In this document: positions 24,020 to 36,178 of the stretch, in pieces
Layout of the letters: each line of letters starts with the position of its first letter
How positions within the stretch are numbered: position 1 is the stretch's first letter
Source of the DNA: a virus
Lineage: Duplodnaviria > Heunggongvirae > Uroviricota > Caudoviricetes
IMG/VR virus record: IMGVR_UViG_2695420793_000017
DNA length: 36,178 nt
Direction: 5' to 3' (one strand)
The notes under the pieces: generated by a model
Database searches by the model: none
Told to the model about the DNA's origin: nothing
What the model saw: the letters and a program-made list of their open reading frames with translations, nothing else
Position numbers and translations under genes: made by a program

Positions 24020-25270
24020 TTATCGCCATTTTAGATAAAAAGCAAAAAATGGATCAGTAATATGCAACTTTCGGTCCTCCTTATCCCAATCTATTACAGG
24101 AGTTGAAGCTTCTTCCGTAGCAGCTATTTTAGCCATTTTTTCTATAACACGAGTAACCTCATGAGCTTGTGGAGGAGCATCTTGCACCAGTTCGCGTATG
24201 GCTGATCTTAACTCCTCATACTGAATACTTTGCATTCCTGGTTTCATATGTGACAATGCATATAATACAACTTTATATATATCTACTTCCTCACCACTTT
24301 TCAGTTTTCTAGGAATTCTGTCAGTTCGCTGATTAGGGCCACTAGCTAACTTATCAAATACTATTTTCCCAGTGGATTCTGCAACCTTTCTAAAAATATC
24401 ATCATCTAAAGAATTAATAACTAACTTACTCGGCAAAGTTTCTTTAACATTATTTACTAAGCATATAGCCTTGCAAAACTCTTGCATTAAATGAGGGCTT
24501 CCCAATGATTCATTGGCAATTTTATCAATTACTGAATCACTAACTTCCATGTTTAACAGAGGAAATCCCACTTTTGCTATTTGTTTTAGTTCATCCATTT
24601 CCCACGAAGGCATGGAAATATTTTCTAGCCGTCCGGTAATTTCTTTTTCAACTTTTACAGCATCATATCTTCGATGTGGAATGGCTATCAGTACAACTGG
24701 TACTCCATCAAAAACTAATGGTTTTATCGCTCTAATAAAGTTACCTTGTAGGTCACGATCAAGGTAATGAAAGTCATCAATTATAAGACTAGACTTGGTT
24801 TGAGAGAGAACTTTTAGTGCAGAACTTTTTGCGGATATCGTTCGCGATTTTTTATTACCATTTGACTTTCCATCCGTCTGAACTAAACCAGCCTCACCTG
24901 TACCTTTAACAACGAATGCACTTGCGGTCCCCGATACCTTACCACTAACTGCAATAGCACTATTTTCTCCAGAATTAACTTCAATACTATGGTAGCCATT
25001 TAGTTTTTCTAATACCTGCTCCCAAATATCATCTTCAGTTGTAATACTCCCACCGTCAATCCATACAACATCATCGTCCATAACTGGGAATACCATTCTT
25101 GTAATTACAGTCTTACCAGACTTTGTTTGCCCAGTTAAAGTCACTAACTTACATAAATTATCTTTAGCACTCTCCAGTTTTCCATGAACCTCTCCTTCAG
25201 AGCGCTCAACATAAGTCAATTTCGGCATACCGCCAGGCACAAAAACTTGTGAAGCACGTTGTTTATCCAT
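24020..25270 (-). CDS. P-loop NTPase of unknown function (accessory gene, candidate anti-phage defence)
   Basis: 416-aa ORF; Walker A GQTKSGKT and Walker B-like LIIDDFHYLDRD; visibly AT-rich versus neighbours; lies between cos and Q. Confidence 0.8.
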   Translation of the reverse strand: MDKQRASQVFVPGGMPKLTYVERSEGEVHGKLESAKDNLCKLVTLTGQTKSGKTVITRMVFPVMDDDVVWIDGGSITTEDDIWEQVLEKLNGYHSIEVNSGENSAIAVSGKVSGTASAFVVKGTGEAGLVQTDGKSNGNKKSRTISAKSSALKVLSQTKSSLIIDDFHYLDRDLQGNFIRAIKPLVFDGVPVVLIAIPHRRYDAVKVEKEITGRLENISMPSWEMDELKQIAKVGFPLLNMEVSDSVIDKIANESLGSPHLMQEFCKAICLVNNVKETLPSKLVINSLDDDIFRKVAESTGKIVFDKLASGPNQRTDRIPRKLKSGEEVDIYKVVLYALSHMKPGMQSIQYEELRSAIRELVQDAPPQAHEVTRVIEKMAKIAATEEASTPVIDWDKEDRKLHITDPFFAFYLKWR

Positions 25271-26304: not shown

Positions 26305-26538
26305 TTAATGCAGCCAGCTGTCGTCCTCCCACACCTTCTGCATAATTTTCATCACTTGTTTTCTTTCTTCATCCAGTTGCAGTCCGGTTAGTTCCACACC
26401 GTTAGAGCTACCTTTGCGAATGCGAATTACCGTTTTGGGATACAGGGGGCGCAGATTGCGGTAAAGCTCGGATTCAAGGGCGTCCAGGGTAGACTGGCTA
26501 ATCTTCTGCTCTTTATCGATCATTATTTCAATGCGCAT
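26305..26538 (-). CDS. DinI-family protein
   Basis: MRIEIMIDK...WEDDSWLH resembles E. coli DinI (MRIEVTIAK...WESADDWF) as recalled; start set at ATG 26538 with a GAGGTGA Shine-Dalgarno overlapping the upstream stop. Confidence 0.7.
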   Translation of the reverse strand: MRIEIMIDKEQKISQSTLDALESELYRNLRPLYPKTVIRIRKGSSNGVELTGLQLDEERKQVMKIMQKVWEDDSWLH

Positions 26539-26548
26539 AAAAGTCACC

Positions 26549-26737
26549 TCAGCTGATGACATCCATTGAGCGGTTGTATTCGTGACTTCTGATTTTTGCC
26601 ATAAGTTCATCAGTCAATTCAGAAACCCACTGCAGAGCCAGCCCCTTCTCTTCATCACTACACTCACTAGCCGCTACAAGCTTAAGAAAAAAATCAATGC
26701 GCTGAAGCTTCAAAGACTCCAAAAAATAGTCCTGCAT
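26549..26737 (-). CDS. small hypothetical protein, first gene of the LexA-box operon (possible Tum-like N-terminal module)
   Basis: 62-aa ORF with an AGGAGG Shine-Dalgarno; a LexA box lies about 45 nt upstream; translationally coupled to the dinI-like gene. Confidence 0.55.
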   Translation of the reverse strand: MQDYFLESLKLQRIDFFLKLVAASECSDEEKGLALQWVSELTDELMAKIRSHEYNRSMDVIS

Positions 26738-26777
26738 CTTTCCTCCTATGACACCAAAACAATACTGTATACATAAC

Positions 26778-26797
26778 CACTGTTTATATTTACAGTA
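26778..26797. promoter_or_regulatory. LexA box (SOS operator)
   Basis: cACTGTttatatttACAGta = CTGT-N8-ACAG with an AT-rich spacer, overlapping a candidate -10 for the minus-strand operon. Confidence 0.65.
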
Positions 26798-32248: not shown

Positions 32249-32758
32249 TCACAGCAAACCGAATGAAGCACCGAGGCCAGTCACGGTATCAACTGCACTC
32301 GCCATCGCAGGATTAGCCTGTAAACGGGCCTGCAATGAAACAGCAGCCAGCGCCATCAGTCGTGTTACAGAGTTAATGCTGCTGATAGCATCACGACGAC
32401 CGGCACTAGTTTTTACATCACCAGATACCGCACCTGCTGCAACACGTCCGATCTCTGCAGTTGCGCTCATGACGTAATGCGGCAGTTTCTCTTTTGCAAC
32501 CTCATTAATCGGTACACATGGCAGGCAGTGAATCTGTGCCAGAAAACCATCTACCAGCGTTGAATCTTCAGTCAGATCGGTAAGCAGCCAGATTTCTGGT
32601 GCAGTTAATAAATGAGGTTGAGATGGGTTCAGCTTGTTCCGCAGAATCTGCACATTCATGCCAGCACGTTCTGCCAGTTGCACCAGGTTGTGGCGCAATG
32701 CGAATGCACGACAGGCTTCATCAAAATGTGGATGTTTGGAAACTTGGTAATCAAACAT
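32249..32758 (-). CDS. cII: CII-like lysogeny establishment regulator (186 type)
   Basis: start set at [19 protein letters not shown]..., which matches the N-terminus and length of phage 186 CII as recalled. Confidence 0.75.
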
Positions 32759-32790
32759 GGTCGATACCCCTGATGTATCCCAAAATGGAA

Positions 32791-33012
32791 CTAGTTGAAT
32801 ACAACATTGCAATCAGTAAGTGCATCAACGGTAAGAGCAGCAAGGTTGATCATCACCTTTTCTCTTTTCTTGTCTTTCCGAAGGCGATGCCGAGGGATGC
32901 GACCGTCAGCCAGCATATCGTTAATTGTATCGATTGAAAGACCAGTAAGTTCGCTATAACGCTCAATTGTGACATGTGGCGTATTCAGAGTTATTGAAAT
33001 GTTAGGGGTCAT
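32791..33012 (-). CDS. apl: Apl/Cox-like excisionase and transcriptional regulator
   Basis: 73-aa HTH-like ORF divergent from cI and first gene of the lytic operon. Confidence 0.65.
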
Positions 33013-33100: not shown

Positions 33101-34039
33101 ATGTCAACTCAAAAAAACACATTTCGCCATATTAGCGAGAGTCTAAAAACTTCAATAATGCAAAACCGTGGGGGACAGAAAGTAATTGAGCGTATACTTG
33201 CTGCGTATGGTTTTACTTCGCGGCAAGCATTTTGCAATCATCTGGGTATCTCACAAAGCACGATGGCTAACAGGTATGCTCGTGACACATTTCCTGCTGA
33301 CTGGGTGATAATTTGCAGTATAGAGACCGGCGCATCTATCGACTGGTTGGCATCGGGAATCAGCTGTGAATCATCCTCAGTTTTATTAAATGATGAACGT
33401 TTAGCCCATACCAAATCTGATGACCTGGATAGAACTAACTCAATAGCCCAAAAGTTCCCAATCGAGACCAGCATAAATCCTAATAAAGGAGGGAAGGCGG
33501 CAATTGATCGCTTAGTCGCAGCCTACGGCTTTAGCACCCGACAAGCCCTAGCAAACCATTTGCAGGTTTCAAAAAGCACTGTAGCAAACAGGTACTTACG
33601 AGACACGTTTCCTAGCGATTGGATCATTCAATGCGCTCTTGAAACAGGAACTTCATTACTCTGGCTCACAAACGGCAATGGCCCCAAATTTATCGATAAT
33701 TCCAGCTCTGTAGCCCAACTTAAACACCAAACAATCATTGACGGTAAATTACATGATGAAGGCTACTTAGCATTTGACAAGACGCTTATACCTTCCGGAT
33801 TGAAAAAACCTATTGGAGTTACCGCAGAAGGAAAAACCTTTATTGCAGATACAGAATATGATGATGTTTCAGATGGTAGTTGGTTGATTGAGATTGAAGG
33901 TAAAGTAAGTTTAAGAAAATTAACAAGAATTCCAGTTGGAAAAGTAAAAATCACATCAGATACAACTGATTTTGTTTGTAAGCTTGAAGACATTACAACC
34001 ATCGCAAAATGTTGTTGCGTTTTTTCAAAGGAAATTTAA
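33101..34039 (+). CDS. cI: CI-like immunity repressor with a tandemly duplicated N-terminal DNA-binding domain
   Basis: 312-aa ORF; two homologous modules (...ERILAAYGF.SRQAFCNHLGISQSTMANRYARDTFPADW... and ...DRLVAAYGFSTRQALANHLQVSKSTVANRYLRDTFPSDW...) followed by a C-terminal domain. Confidence 0.75.
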   Translation: MSTQKNTFRHISESLKTSIMQNRGGQKVIERILAAYGFTSRQAFCNHLGISQSTMANRYARDTFPADWVIICSIETGASIDWLASGISCESSSVLLNDERLAHTKSDDLDRTNSIAQKFPIETSINPNKGGKAAIDRLVAAYGFSTRQALANHLQVSKSTVANRYLRDTFPSDWIIQCALETGTSLLWLTNGNGPKFIDNSSSVAQLKHQTIIDGKLHDEGYLAFDKTLIPSGLKKPIGVTAEGKTFIADTEYDDVSDGSWLIEIEGKVSLRKLTRIPVGKVKITSDTTDFVCKLEDITTIAKCCCVFSKEI

Positions 34040-34049
34040 AGGAACATAC

Positions 34050-35039
34050 ATGAATTCTGAAAATAAAAAAAATGAAAACAACGATTATGTTGAAAAAGTT
34101 AATTGCGAATGGAAAGATCTTTATAATATTTTAAATGAAAATCTGCATAAATTTAATGAAAATGAACGCGCCTACTTAGTCGACTTATTAAAAAAAGGTG
34201 AACTTGATAAATTCAGAGAATACTACTGGAAATTAGCCCAGCAAGAAAAAATGAACTACAGCGATAAAGCTGGAGATATTTTTATTAATGAAAACAATAA
34301 GATAGATGAATTAATAAAAGAACAAAAACATCTTCGAGAGATAATGCGATCATATACCAAACGTTTATTGGAGGCTGAAGAGTCCAAAGCTACGTTACAT
34401 CTTCGGAATGAGAATTTAGAAAAACTAAATTCTGAAAAAGAAGCAATTATTGAGCAAGCCGTATCTAGAATAAAGCAACTTGAAGCATCTAACAGCGAAT
34501 TACAAAGCCGAGTACAACAAGAAAGGATTGATGAGAAAATACCAGGATATGTCGATAGCGTTAAAAGTGAACTAAGTTCAGATGACTTATATTTCATTAA
34601 AATGTCGCAAGTATGGGCTTTTACTGGCTGCATTTTTGGGCTACTTGCTGTATGTGCATCATTTTATACACTCTACGCCACAATTGACTTCAACAATGTT
34701 AAAGGCTTTGAGCTATTTTATTTTTTCACACGTGGTTTAATTGGTATTTCCATTCTTTCTTGGCTAGCATATATTTGCCTTGGCAACTCTAAAAAATATA
34801 CCCATGAATCAATTTTGAGAAAAGATAGAAGACATGCACTAATGTTTGGGCAAGTATTCCTGCAAATTTATGGTTCCACGTCAACAAAAGAAGATGCTGT
34901 GTTAGTCTTTAAAGACTGGAATATGTCTGGTAACTCTGCATTTTCTGACAAAACAGAACTCCCTCCGGGAATCCAATCTTTATGGGATTCAACCAAAGAA
35001 AAACTAAAGCCAAGTACCGCTGAAAAAGCACAGGAGTGA
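34050..35039 (+). CDS. hypothetical coiled-coil/two-TM protein (AT-rich moron between cI and int)
   Basis: start set at MNSENKK (AGGAA Shine-Dalgarno); Lys/Glu/Asn-rich coiled-coil N-half, two hydrophobic helices; strongly AT-rich by eye. Confidence 0.7.
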   Translation: MNSENKKNENNDYVEKVNCEWKDLYNILNENLHKFNENERAYLVDLLKKGELDKFREYYWKLAQQEKMNYSDKAGDIFINENNKIDELIKEQKHLREIMRSYTKRLLEAEESKATLHLRNENLEKLNSEKEAIIEQAVSRIKQLEASNSELQSRVQQERIDEKIPGYVDSVKSELSSDDLYFIKMSQVWAFTGCIFGLLAVCASFYTLYATIDFNNVKGFELFYFFTRGLIGISILSWLAYICLGNSKKYTHESILRKDRRHALMFGQVFLQIYGSTSTKEDAVLVFKDWNMSGNSAFSDKTELPPGIQSLWDSTKEKLKPSTAEKAQE

Positions 35040-35074
35040 GGCCAATGTTTATTTCACCCTAAACATACATTGAT

Positions 35075-35094
35075 AACTGTTTAAATATACAGTT
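35075..35094. promoter_or_regulatory. LexA-box-like palindrome upstream of int
   Basis: aACTGTttaaatatACAGtt = CTGT-N8-ACAG; function uncertain. Confidence 0.35.
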
Positions 35095-35100
35095 AAATTT

Positions 35101-35125
35101 AGCCCTCTGATATGAGGGCTTTTTT
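35101..35125 (+). terminator. rho-independent terminator abutting the int start
   Basis: AGCCCTC-tgatat-GAGGGCT hairpin followed by TTTTT immediately before the int ATG at 35126. Confidence 0.55.
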
Positions 35126-36178
35126 ATGGCAGTACGAAAACTCACCACAGGAAAATGGCTTTGCGAATGTTACCCTGCCGGACGTAGTGGACGTCGTGTG
35201 CGTAAACAATTCGCCACCAAAGGCGAAGCTCTGGCTTTTGAGCGTCACACGATGGAAGAAACCGAAGCAAAACCCTGGCTGGGTGAATCAGTGGATCGTC
35301 GAACACTGAAAGACGTGGTTGAACTATGGTTCAAACTACATGGTAAATCTCTGACAGCTGGGCAGCATGTCTATGACAAATTGCTGTTGATGGTTGACGC
35401 TCTGGGAAATCCCATTGCAACCGATCTCACCTCTAAAATGTTTGCCCACTATCGAGATAAACGCCTGACAGGAGAGATCTACTTCAGCGAAAAATGGAAG
35501 AAAGGAGCAAGCCCGGTCACCATTAACCTGGAGCAAAGCTATCTTAGTAGTGTTTTTAGCGAACTATCCCGCCTGGGCGAATGGTCGTATCCGAACCCAC
35601 TGGAGAACATGCGAAAATTCACCATCGCAGAAAAAGAGATGGCATGGCTTACCCATGAGCAGATTGTTGAATTACTGGCTGATTGCAAACGTCAGGACCC
35701 AATTCTGGCACTGGTAGTTAAGATATGCTTAAGCACAGGCGCACGCTGGCGTGAAGCTGTAAATCTTACCCGCTCACAGGTGACCAAATACCGAATTACC
35801 TTTGTAAGAACGAAGGGGAAGAAAAACAGAAGCATCCCTATCAGTAAAGAACTTTACGAAGAGATCATGGCGCTTGATGGGTTCAATTTCTTCACAGACT
35901 GCTATTTTCAATTTTTATCTGTGATGGGAAAAACGTCTATCGTGCTCCCTCGCGGTCAACTGACACACGTTCTGCGCCATACGTTTGCGGCGCATTTCAT
36001 GATGTCGGGTGGAAATATCCTTGCTTTGCAAAAAATCCTCGGACATCACGACATAAAAATGACTATGCGTTACGCACATCTGGCACCGGATCATCTGGAA
36101 ACGGCGCTCCGTTTCAATCCTCTGGCAACGCTGCCAAGTGGCGACAAAGTGGCGGCAGCGGTTGGCATTACCCCGTAA
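35126..36178 (+). CDS. int: tyrosine integrase (P2/186 type)
   Basis: 350-aa ORF; C-terminal ...HVLRHTFA...GHHDIKMTMRYAHL fits the tyrosine recombinase catalytic region; stop is the last codon of the window. Confidence 0.85.
   Translation: MAVRKLTTGKWLCECYPAGRSGRRVRKQFATKGEALAFERHTMEETEAKPWLGESVDRRTLKDVVELWFKLHGKSLTAGQHVYDKLLLMVDALGNPIATDLTSKMFAHYRDKRLTGEIYFSEKWKKGASPVTINLEQSYLSSVFSELSRLGEWSYPNPLENMRKFTIAEKEMAWLTHEQIVELLADCKRQDPILALVVKICLSTGARWREAVNLTRSQVTKYRITFVRTKGKKNRSIPISKELYEEIMALDGFNFFTDCYFQFLSVMGKTSIVLPRGQLTHVLRHTFAAHFMMSGGNILALQKILGHHDIKMTMRYAHLAPDHLETALRFNPLATLPSGDKVAAAVGITP
36140..36160. repeat. putative attL core (GGCGACAAAGTGGCGGCAGCG) inside the int 3' end
   Basis: 20/21 identical to 2835-2855. 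Confidence 0.5.

Follow-up and report, generated by a model that had tools for sequence, protein, structure and literature searches.

We examined the region in front of int in a 36,178-nucleotide stretch of a Caudoviricetes genome (IMG/VR record IMGVR_UViG_2695420793_000017), the whole of which is called the window here. The gene encodes a tyrosine integrase, and a variable moron lies between it and cI. The elements discussed below are packed into positions 35045-35125, directly upstream of the int ATG, and they are listed here together with the moron and the related sites elsewhere in the window.

26763-26797, minus strand: two overlapping LexA boxes (23.5 and 16.1 bits) at the promoter of a tum/DinI-like SOS operon, with a DinI Pfam match downstream
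32732-32758, plus strand: pE-type CII box of the phage itself, ATGTTTG-N13-CAAACAT, within the beginning of cII, with half-sites and spacing as in the annotated CII site of phage 186
34050-35039, plus strand: variable moron of 329 aa with a coiled coil and membrane segments, between cI and the int module (sequence and comparison with relatives)
35045-35051, plus strand: distal half-site ATGTTTA of a CII-type repeat, centred near -57/-58 (pattern match and 186 annotation)
35064-35070, plus strand: proximal half-site CATACAT, with its centre at 35067, which is -38 if +1 is 35105 (pattern match and 186 annotation)
35070-35075, plus strand: predicted -35 hexamer TTGATA (promoter scan; TTGACA or TTGACC in relatives)
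35075-35094, no strand assigned: predicted LexA (SOS) box AACTGTTTAAATATACAGTT (equal to aACTGTttaaatatACAGtt), which fills the promoter spacer (weight-matrix score)
35093-35098, plus strand: predicted -10 hexamer TTAAAT after a 17-nt spacer (promoter scan and conserved columns)
35094-35099, plus strand: alternative -10 hexamer TAAATT after an 18-nt spacer (the promoter scan reports TTGATA-N18-TAAATT)
35101-35120, plus strand: hairpin formed by AGCCCTC (35101-35107), loop tgatat and GAGGGCT (35114-35120) (terminator scan and folding)
35105, plus strand: predicted transcription start, plus or minus 2 nt, with a leader of 21 nt (two independent rulers)
35114-35118, plus strand: Shine-Dalgarno (SD) element GAGGG of int in the 3' arm of the hairpin, the sole SD-like element, 7 nt from the ATG
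35120-35125, plus strand: T6 tract directly abutting the int ATG at 35126 (sequence and terminator scan)
35126-36178, plus strand: int, a 350-aa tyrosine integrase (Pfam Int_N and Phage_integrase)

The palindrome CTGT-N8-ACAG, which a previous sequence-only reading of this DNA had pointed out within 35075-35094, is present in the window sequence with its core at 35077-35092 (CTGTTTAAATATACAG) and an AT-rich centre. The exact pattern occurs twice in the window against 0.5 occurrences expected, and the second copy is located at the tum/DinI SOS promoter. Using a LexA weight matrix built from a hand-compiled set of 28 E. coli sites, the kind of scoring that the same reading had proposed, we found that the 20-mer in front of int reaches 25.3/26.4 bits, with a heterology index of 3.0/2.4, where the training sites of this matrix span 14.9-28.0 bits. 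This is the top LexA score of the whole window and exceeds that of 25 of the 28 training sites; it was reached in none of 200 Markov simulations of the window and in none of 2000 simulations of the AT-rich stretch 33101-35125. By its predicted strength, the 20-mer is comparable to the strongest E. coli SOS boxes. Among Enterobacterales, 70 of 104 distinct int-upstream regions contain CTG-N10-CAG in one fixed register between the -35 and the -10. Both triplets were demanded when box regions were selected, so their invariance is uninformative; the 38 distinct box 20-mers, which have variable centres, all score between 15.0 and 26.5 bits, inside the range of the 28 matrix sites.

Rather than riding on the cI operon, int appears to have its own sigma-70 promoter, which we call P_int. 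The 17-nt spacer of this predicted promoter is occupied by the LexA box, the overlap expected of a LexA-blocked promoter, and the most conserved columns of the module after the CTG and CAG triplets of the box are ACATTGA and CAGT-AAAT. Two rulers agree in placing the start at 35105, which is 7 nt past the -10 hexamer and 38 nt past the centre of the proximal CII half-site, as at 186 pE; a pyrimidine stands at this predicted +1. We also considered whether the palindromic box could serve a promoter on the minus strand and rejected the idea: the scan finds none there, and the conserved hexamers have the form of a -35 and a -10 in plus-strand orientation only.

Upstream of the box lies the inverted repeat ATGTTTA-N12-CATACAT, each half-site of which is identical at six of seven positions to ATGTTTG/CAAACAT of 186. 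The half-site centres are 19 bp apart, their positions of -38 and -57 being counted from the start predicted via the -10, and the -35 hexamer begins with the last T of CATACAT. Across the window, only the pE position and the site in front of int match ATGTWTR-N12-13-YAWACAT perfectly. The repeat is kept with at most one mismatch in 60 of 66 distinct modules, where its right end stands 5-6 nt before the box, its loop varies freely in sequence but always has a length of 12-13, and its half-sites follow the consensus ATGT(A/T)T(G/A). The phage encodes a 186-type CII (Pfam Phage_CP76 at 32249-32812), and cII, cI and apl are found upstream of the module in most loci that extend far enough; among these loci we saw none with a P2-type context (C/Cox only). 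Several other identities of the repeat were considered and rejected, namely a CI operator (186 FR, an annotated CI-binding site, reads ATTCAC...GTGAAT on inspection), Int arm sites (the 186 consensus is YAYCGCCAYTY), Apl repeats, and an IHF site (an IHF-like match is present in the Rahnella clade only).

The -35 of int is near consensus in the window and in relatives alike, which departs from the weak -35 of a pE-type promoter, and we therefore regard P_int as a carrier of a CII-type site and not as a pE-type promoter. With such a -35, unlike that of the CII-dependent pE, CII may be dispensable. Even with CII present, LexA bound as a dimer in the spacer would be expected to block RNA polymerase, which is a difficulty for Int synthesis when an undamaged cell is lysogenised.

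The hairpin at 35101-35120, also part of the sequence-only reading, was recovered by both the terminator scan and folding. Its stem of 7 bp includes five GC pairs, encloses a 6-nt loop and is followed directly by T6, which is the form of an intrinsic terminator; it folds at -13.3 kcal/mol (z = -3.9), none of 200 shuffles is as stable, and it begins 2 nt past the -10 element. GAGGG is indeed the only SD-like element and lies inside the 3' arm as described previously, while the T-run, said to end one nucleotide before the ATG, in fact leaves no gap, since it runs to 35125 and the ATG begins at 35126. Rfam returned sub-threshold terminator-like matches only (RyhB, Trp leader and others), none of them near the gathering score. 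A small ORF starting at 35112 was set aside, as it is not conserved in other hairpin classes.

Comparison of relatives separates the two apparent roles of this hairpin. The Escherichia/Klebsiella/Enterobacter clade has the T-run. The Rahnella, Yersinia, Serratia, Kluyvera and other versions lack it, yet they retain a hairpin, with another sequence, in which the SD is paired and which stops at the ATG. Because the hairpin is kept without the T-run in several clades, the terminator role would be clade-specific and SD pairing the common feature. Box-bearing relatives have a median hairpin dG of -13.4 (z -5.1) from unrelated stem sequences, and 94% of 54 distinct segments have z < -2 in per-sequence folding; no hairpin is seen in front of int homologues that lack the box (median dG -2.65, z 0.43). 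Between clades the stem sequence changes completely, the SD is always paired, and the stem starts at, within or just after the -10; the commonest E. coli class has an extended 5' arm that takes in the -10 element. No consensus structure emerged when RNAalifold was applied to 45 distinct box-to-ATG segments aligned with MAFFT, and the hairpins of different clades are out of register with one another. After this null result, we used per-sequence folding and explicit pair counting. On an unfitted alignment, the percentage of cells paired, the changes on both sides of pairs and the covariation score exceed all 500 shuffles and every slid register; the numbers of pairs and of pair types do not.

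The predicted start falls within the 5' arm and removes four of the seven stem pairs, so that a transcript made from P_int would have its SD free. For this module, of which an identical duplicate was scored, opening the SD is calculated to cost 11.9 kcal in read-through RNA versus 5.2 kcal in RNA from 35105. Across the 54 segments, the median cost is 12.5 kcal for read-through RNA and 4.1 kcal for RNA that begins at the predicted start. Read-through RNA is the costlier by 5 kcal or more in 48 of them, and in 52 the P_int transcript lacks half or more of the stem pairs. RNA starting 3 nt earlier, at G35102, keeps a 6-bp hairpin with the SD masked, at an opening cost of 11.5 kcal, and a 64-nt RNA from this position folds at -17 kcal/mol. 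In these folding models, discrimination by transcript origin is sensitive to the exact start, to within about 3 nt, for the hairpin class of the window and robust for the commonest class.

The module is not tied to what precedes it. In IMG/VR, it stands upstream of int, at most 80 nt away, in 92 of 121 matches to the -35/box pattern, with int homologues of 40-100% identity. The 80-bp module as a whole is retained ahead of int homologues whose identity falls from 100% to about 44%. At the position of the moron, relatives have other genes or none, and the module is constant whatever lies upstream, which refutes the suggestion that the palindrome is incidental to an AT-rich moron. Read-through transcription would come from the moron, although the moron itself lies outside the module. 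In Rahnella and Pantoea, int is preceded by D-ogr instead of cI, and a separate strong terminator is already present 3' of ogr, just upstream of the module. In contrast, 186-type int genes that are fused to cI have neither box, repeat nor hairpin.

We propose, with a probability of about two in three, that 35045-35125 is a compact control module for int, consisting of a LexA-repressed and probably CII-activated promoter at which read-through transcripts are terminated or masked. In a healthy lysogen, host LexA on the spacer operator would keep P_int shut. During the SOS response, P_int would open together with the LexA-controlled tum operon and supply Int for excision, with Apl; the tum/DinI-like operon is, by its predicted boxes, the second SOS-controlled point of the prophage. 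After infection, phage CII bound at the -38/-58 repeat would stimulate P_int and supply Int for integration. Transcripts of the cI/moron operon carry both arms of the hairpin. In the Escherichia/Klebsiella/Enterobacter clade, they would stop at the T-run, and the SD of any that read past it would be masked. Transcripts from P_int would begin inside the 5' arm, with no hairpin, no termination and the SD exposed on a leader of about 21 nt. If int has its own promoter with a start in the 5' arm, the hairpin thus acts against read-through. SOS modulation of int, raised previously as a possibility, becomes the most likely reading because the LexA box is of high quality and conserved in register, and because the hairpin sequesters the SD and is terminator-like. 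The arrangement suggests DNA damage or infection, and not read-through of the repressor operon, as the occasion for integrase production. More tentatively, the 80 bp may form a gate with three inputs, LexA/SOS for excision, CII for integration and a hairpin that responds to transcript origin, which would uncouple int from the repressor operon altogether.

Other readings of the hairpin and the promoter are less probable. The sequence-only reading suggested that int may depend on read-through or antitermination from the cI operon and on melting of the hairpin. Taken as a full model, int would have no promoter of its own, some factor would melt the hairpin, and the LexA box would modulate the read-through or be incidental. 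Phage 186 offers a precedent, as the cI operon drives its int, whose start overlaps the stop of cI, but we consider this account highly improbable for the module: a -35 and a -10 are conserved at canonical spacing around the box with a putative activator site at -38/-58, the module is also present where int follows D-ogr, and the 186-type int genes that are fused to cI have no box, repeat or hairpin. It is unlikely, though less so, that hairpin and T-run are merely the terminator of the cI/moron operon, overlapping the SD through tight packing in front of a LexA-controlled P_int that does not discriminate between transcripts. The structure does look like a standard intrinsic terminator and its T-run is retained across the Escherichia/Klebsiella/Enterobacter clade; against this, clades that have no T-run still pair the SD, through a hairpin with a different stem that runs up to the ATG, Rahnella and Pantoea already have their strong terminator after ogr, and int homologues without the promoter module have no hairpin. 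A start upstream of the hairpin, for instance at A35101 or G35102, has a similarly small chance of being correct. The int mRNA would then have a 5' hairpin that throttles its translation, stabilises the message or both, keeping Int low even after SOS. Purines, the preferred start bases, do stand at 35101-35102, and RNA from 35102 retains the masking hairpin described above; yet these positions are only 3-4 nt past the -10 hexamer, outside the usual range, and with a T-run such a transcript would terminate itself before the ATG. In the commonest class, moreover, the stem begins directly after or within the -10, which leaves half or more of the 5' arm outside any such transcript.

The identity of the upstream repeat bears on one input only. 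Should it form an RNA or DNA hairpin, or bind some protein other than CII, the case for a LexA-controlled promoter would be unchanged and only activation at the time of infection would fall away. We consider this doubtful, although it has more in its favour than the alternatives for the hairpin and the start. The family differs systematically from pE in the central base (ATGTATG versus ATGTTTG) and often has a spacing of 12 rather than 13, the -35 is already close to consensus, a similar repeat occurs upstream of ogr in Rahnella, and the repeat also folds in long RNA. On the other side, the repeat agrees with the annotated 186 CII operator in its half-sites, in its dyad symmetry, in a spacing close to two helical turns and in its distance from the promoter, the spacing of 12-13 is fixed though the loop sequence is free, and cII co-occurs with the module. 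CII therefore remains our preferred ligand for the repeat.

Parts of the proposed module resemble known systems. LexA sites lie at or upstream of recombinase genes in integron intI genes and a Firmicute phage integrase (PMC3108266). As in integron intI, a LexA box overlaps the promoter of a tyrosine-recombinase gene and would tie recombination to SOS (PMC3108266); unlike intI, the present case is a 186-like (Peduoviridae) prophage of Enterobacterales, in which the predicted spacer box is accompanied by a putative phage activator site and by a hairpin that would mask the SD. The 186 record (NC_001317) has LexA boxes annotated at the p95-tum promoter and ATGTTTG-N13-CAAACAT annotated as the CII site of pE. 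Both 186 and the window belong to a phage group in which LexA boxes in a phage promoter trigger induction, the equivalent in the window being 26763-26797, but the 186 record annotates LexA at tum only, and its int, fused to the cI operon, has no box. In module-bearing 186-like prophages, int appears to be a second, direct LexA target. CII half-sites at 186 pE are located at -38 and -58 (PMC6593788). The int-side repeat likewise consists of inverted 7-mers of the form ATGT(T/A)TG, about two helical turns apart and, counted from the predicted start, near -38/-58, whereas pE has no usable -35, drives cI and has no LexA box, and the int promoter has a -35 near consensus and slightly different half-sites and spacing.

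In lambda, CII activates integrase expression (PMC7708051). P_int would resemble lambda pI as a separate int promoter that is switched on by the establishment activator when lysogeny is chosen, but neither the proteins nor the sites are related, and a LexA operator is absent from pI. Read-through expression of lambda int is controlled by sib retroregulation downstream of int and not by a 5' hairpin. The fold-back inhibition of IS10 and IS50, said to have been described by Davis, Simons and Kleckner in 1985 and by Krebs, Schulz and Reznikoff, offers a further parallel: read-through RNA reportedly pairs the ribosome-binding site, and the transposase promoter reportedly starts inside or after the pairing segment, with only its own transcripts being translated. 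In the same way, the int SD is predicted by folding to pair with an upstream complementary segment in long transcripts; unlike IS10/IS50, the gene is a phage integrase, the start is predicted, and the hairpin of the Escherichia/Klebsiella/Enterobacter clade doubles as an apparent intrinsic terminator. In the literature searched, we found no description of a LexA box or private int promoter in P2/186-like phages; older 186/P2 int studies lie mostly outside it, and an earlier description is possible.

In the textbook view of 186/P2-type phages, int rides on the repressor operon and LexA acts only through the Tum antirepressor. If our proposal is correct, int is a second direct SOS target in 186-like prophages, and its control combines a host repressor, a phage activator and a filter for transcript origin. 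The same arrangement would explain how a lysogen can express morons, often defence genes, from a position between cI and int while int stays off, and the compact design of a terminator within a promoter may serve as a synthetic insulator. It also offers a simple sequence signature for predicting SOS-dependent excision in a very common class of Enterobacterales prophages, including the REL606/BL21 prophage. The segment is matched in 1113 of 5426 complete E. coli genomes (about 20%), and the E. coli B strains REL606 and BL21 both contain the module; in the REL606 version, the predicted int start is at complement 882165-882166 of NC_012967.

The window is a 186-like (Peduoviridae) prophage, and the int stop codon coincides with the window end. 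The features at its right end are:

32249-32812, minus strand, cII (Pfam Phage_CP76)
32791-33012, minus strand, apl/cox-like gene
33101-34039, plus strand, 186-type CI of 312 aa
34050-35039, plus strand, moron encoding a 329-aa coiled-coil/membrane protein
35101-35120, hairpin AGCCCTC-tgatat-GAGGGCT with GAGGG in its 3' arm
35126-36178, int

CI contains two tandem Phage_CI_repr helix-turn-helix domains and one C-terminal domain. It is longer than the product of the 186 cI gene (only 579 nt, ~190 aa, in the 186 record) and similar in length to CI of Klebsiella phage 4LV2017 (locus L003, 1324-2265).

In front of int, positions 35075-35094 form a LexA-like 20-mer whose core is 35077-35092. The sequence-only reading had described a LexA-like palindrome followed by a hairpin, a T-run and a hidden Shine-Dalgarno (SD) element, and this layout matches the sequence, with GAGGG inside the 3' arm; the one-nucleotide gap it placed between T-run and ATG is in fact zero (T6 at 35120-35125, ATG at 35126). 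Two exact CTGT-N8-ACAG matches are present in the window, where 0.5 would be expected. Using a weight matrix of 28 E. coli LexA sites, the kind of scoring proposed in that reading, we found that the int-upstream site scores 25.3/26.4 bits, the best in the window and above 25 of the 28 training sites. This score is reached in 0/200 simulations of the window and 0/2000 of the AT-rich stretch 33101-35125. The second-best sites are two overlapping boxes at 26763-26797 before a tum/DinI-like operon, corresponding to the annotated LexA-controlled p95 promoter of 186.

A plus-strand promoter scan places TTGATA-N18-TAAATT around the box; with a 17-nt spacer, the -10 of the predicted int promoter is TTAAAT. 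After the box's own CTG/CAG, the most conserved columns are the flanking ACATTGA and the T-AAAT behind the box. The box-to-ATG distance stays within 29-36 nt, so nothing beyond a -10 element and a 16-24-nt leader fits between them.

The palindrome might instead have belonged to the AT-rich moron, as the sequence-only reading allowed, but the same ~80 bp is kept beside other inserts. In Klebsiella phage KP12 and Escherichia phage vB_EcoM-813R9 the cI-int gap is filled by another gene, but the ~80 bp before int is shared; 4LV2017 differs again in its insert and also in its hairpin sequence; and in E. coli B REL606 the module is present with just a 63-aa ORF in the cI-int gap. The segment is matched in 1113 of 5426 complete E. 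coli genomes. In an int homologue set covering 77 genomes from various species plus 80 IMG/VR contigs, 70 of 104 distinct int-upstream regions have CTG-N10-CAG in one fixed register, with the pattern ACATTGAC(C)A, CTG-N10-CAG, T(T/A)AAAT. All 38 distinct box 20-mers score 15.0-26.5 bits, inside the range of the matrix-building sites, with the CTG and CAG triplets imposed by the selection of boxes and the box centre drifting. An IMG/VR scan with the -35/box junction pattern gave at least 121 matches. Among the 121 matches listed, 92 lie at most 80 nt upstream of an int homologue (40-100% identity), 2 are truncated copies of the module, ~25 resemble chance hits within genes and two are another LexA-box promoter. 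By this result the module is specific to int, and its conservation exceeds that of the integrase protein.

Variable genes cluster at the cI-int junction, which is a hotspot for them. The window moron has weak DUF2207_C similarity and no PADLOC match, and homologues 47-53% identical are found at this position in loci from Yersinia, Brenneria and IMG/VR (L073, L075, L264); the KP12 and 813R9 insert is a 558-aa ATPase. Degenerate module copies occur in Dryocola (L017, CTG mutated to GTG) and Kosakonia (L070, box left half and -35 deleted, int start region disrupted), in prophages that look to be decaying. The other promoter, at IMG/VR loci L176 (7239-7264) and L191, shares the ACATTGATACTG junction and carries two LexA boxes in tandem, first CTGTTTATACATACAG and next TACTGTCATTATATACAGTA, ahead of a non-int gene, possibly a tum-like SOS gene.

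At its left end, the conserved block begins with the inverted repeat ATGTTTA-N12-CATACAT (35045-35070). Only two perfect matches to ATGTWTR-N12-13-YAWACAT exist in the window, this one and ATGTTTG-N13-CAAACAT (32732-32758) inside the cII start, the position of pE in 186. In the curated 186 record, gATGTTTG-N13-CAAACAT is marked as the CII site through which pE is activated. CII half-sites at pE are centred at -38 and -58 (PMC6593788), and the annotated pE end lies 38 nt from the proximal half-site centre. Applied to the window, this 38-nt ruler predicts a start at 35105, the same as 7 nt past the -10 hexamer. Of 66 distinct modules, 60 keep the repeat with no more than one mismatch; its spacing is 12-13 nt, and 5-6 nt always separate its right end from the box. 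In most loci extending far enough, cII, cI and apl lie upstream, and no P2-type context was seen at the module loci examined for upstream genes. Compared with pE, the int-side -35 is near consensus, the half-site central base is usually A rather than T, and the half-sites are often 12 nt apart, against 13 at pE; because of these differences, we infer with moderate confidence that the candidate CII site activates the int promoter.

A second CII-like repeat, ATGTATG-N13-CATACAA, is found directly upstream of the ogr late-activator gene in Rahnella-type loci (gpD-ogr-int; L038 2576-2602 in Rahnella, also L028, L030, L031, L033 and L035), with possible promoter hexamers behind it. This position would be unexpected for an establishment-type activator site.

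A terminator scan returns the same hairpin (35101-35120), which folds at -13.3 kcal/mol (z = -3.9). Across 54 distinct box-to-ATG segments the medians are -13.4 kcal/mol and z -5.1, with 94% below -2. The stem sequences are unrelated between modules (AGCCCTC/GAGGGCT, GCTCTCC/GGAGGGC, CACATTCTC/GAGAATGTG, ACCCCCTT/AAGGGGGT, AAACTCTCCTAAA/TTTAGGAGAGTTT, and several more before int genes of 44-78% identity), and the SD is paired in all of them. When an unfitted MAFFT alignment is compared with 500 shuffles and slid registers, the window helix is paired in 77% of alignment cells versus 67% in shuffles (0/500 reach), and its covariation score is 0.263 versus 0.173 (0/500); the helix also beats all slid registers. 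The hairpin is absent from 28 distinct box-less int homologues (median -2.65 kcal/mol, z 0.43, 0 below -2); in most of these, which are of 186 type, int is fused to the cI stop. Only the Escherichia/Klebsiella/Enterobacter clade has the T-run. Rahnella and Pantoea, where gpU-gpD-ogr and a separate strong terminator precede int, retain the hairpin but lack the T-run, which argues that SD pairing is the common function and termination an addition in the former clade.

The hairpin starts 1-3 nt past the -10 element. In the most frequent E. coli class, pairing of the T-run with the -10 A-run places the -10 itself inside an extended 5' arm. RNA from the predicted start loses at least half of the stem pairs in 52 of 54 modules. 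Opening the SD costs a median of 12.5 kcal in read-through RNA versus 4.1 kcal in the short RNA, a difference of ≥5 kcal in 48 of 54 modules. Window RNA from 35105 has no significant structure (z 0.23), whereas RNA from 35102 would retain a 6-bp hairpin; SD release in the window's hairpin class thus hangs on ~3 nt of the predicted start.

From the observed arrangement, scores, conservation, covariation and co-occurrence of these elements, we infer each functional step of the following model. Int would have a private promoter, kept shut by LexA in lysogens and opening together with the tum operon upon DNA damage; CII would probably boost it after infection. Its start would lie inside the hairpin, which would terminate and mask all upstream-derived transcripts, be they made by the cI/moron operon or, in loci of the other layout, by the late D-ogr operon. 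LexA occupying the spacer would pose a problem for CII action during lysogenisation of an undamaged cell.

The transposase genes of IS10 and IS50 are shielded from outside transcription by fold-back, the same logic as that proposed for the int hairpin. LexA control is established for integron integrases (PMC3108266), and in one study LexA bound upstream of a Firmicute phage integrase in vitro, with the suggestion that phage integrases may also come under SOS control (PMC3998124). In lambda, int expression is activated by CII (PMC7708051), and 186 uses LexA at tum (186 record annotation). No description of the module for P2/186-like phages was found in the literature searched, where coverage of older subscription-journal work is poor. 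The module would change the view of int control in a very common prophage family and should interest phage biologists.

Downstream of the two overlapping LexA boxes, the tum-like region (26305-26737, minus strand) holds a 62-aa ORF and an overlapping 101-aa DinI-domain ORF in different frames; a frameshifted tum, an arrangement of two genes and a sequencing error are all conceivable. Should tum be broken, SOS might fail to induce the prophage even though it would induce int. About 1 kb past this operon, in the direction leading away from the replication gene, a possible defence moron encodes a 416-aa AAA-type ATPase (24020-25270, minus strand) with a match to PDC-S59, a PADLOC candidate defence family (E = 2e-31).
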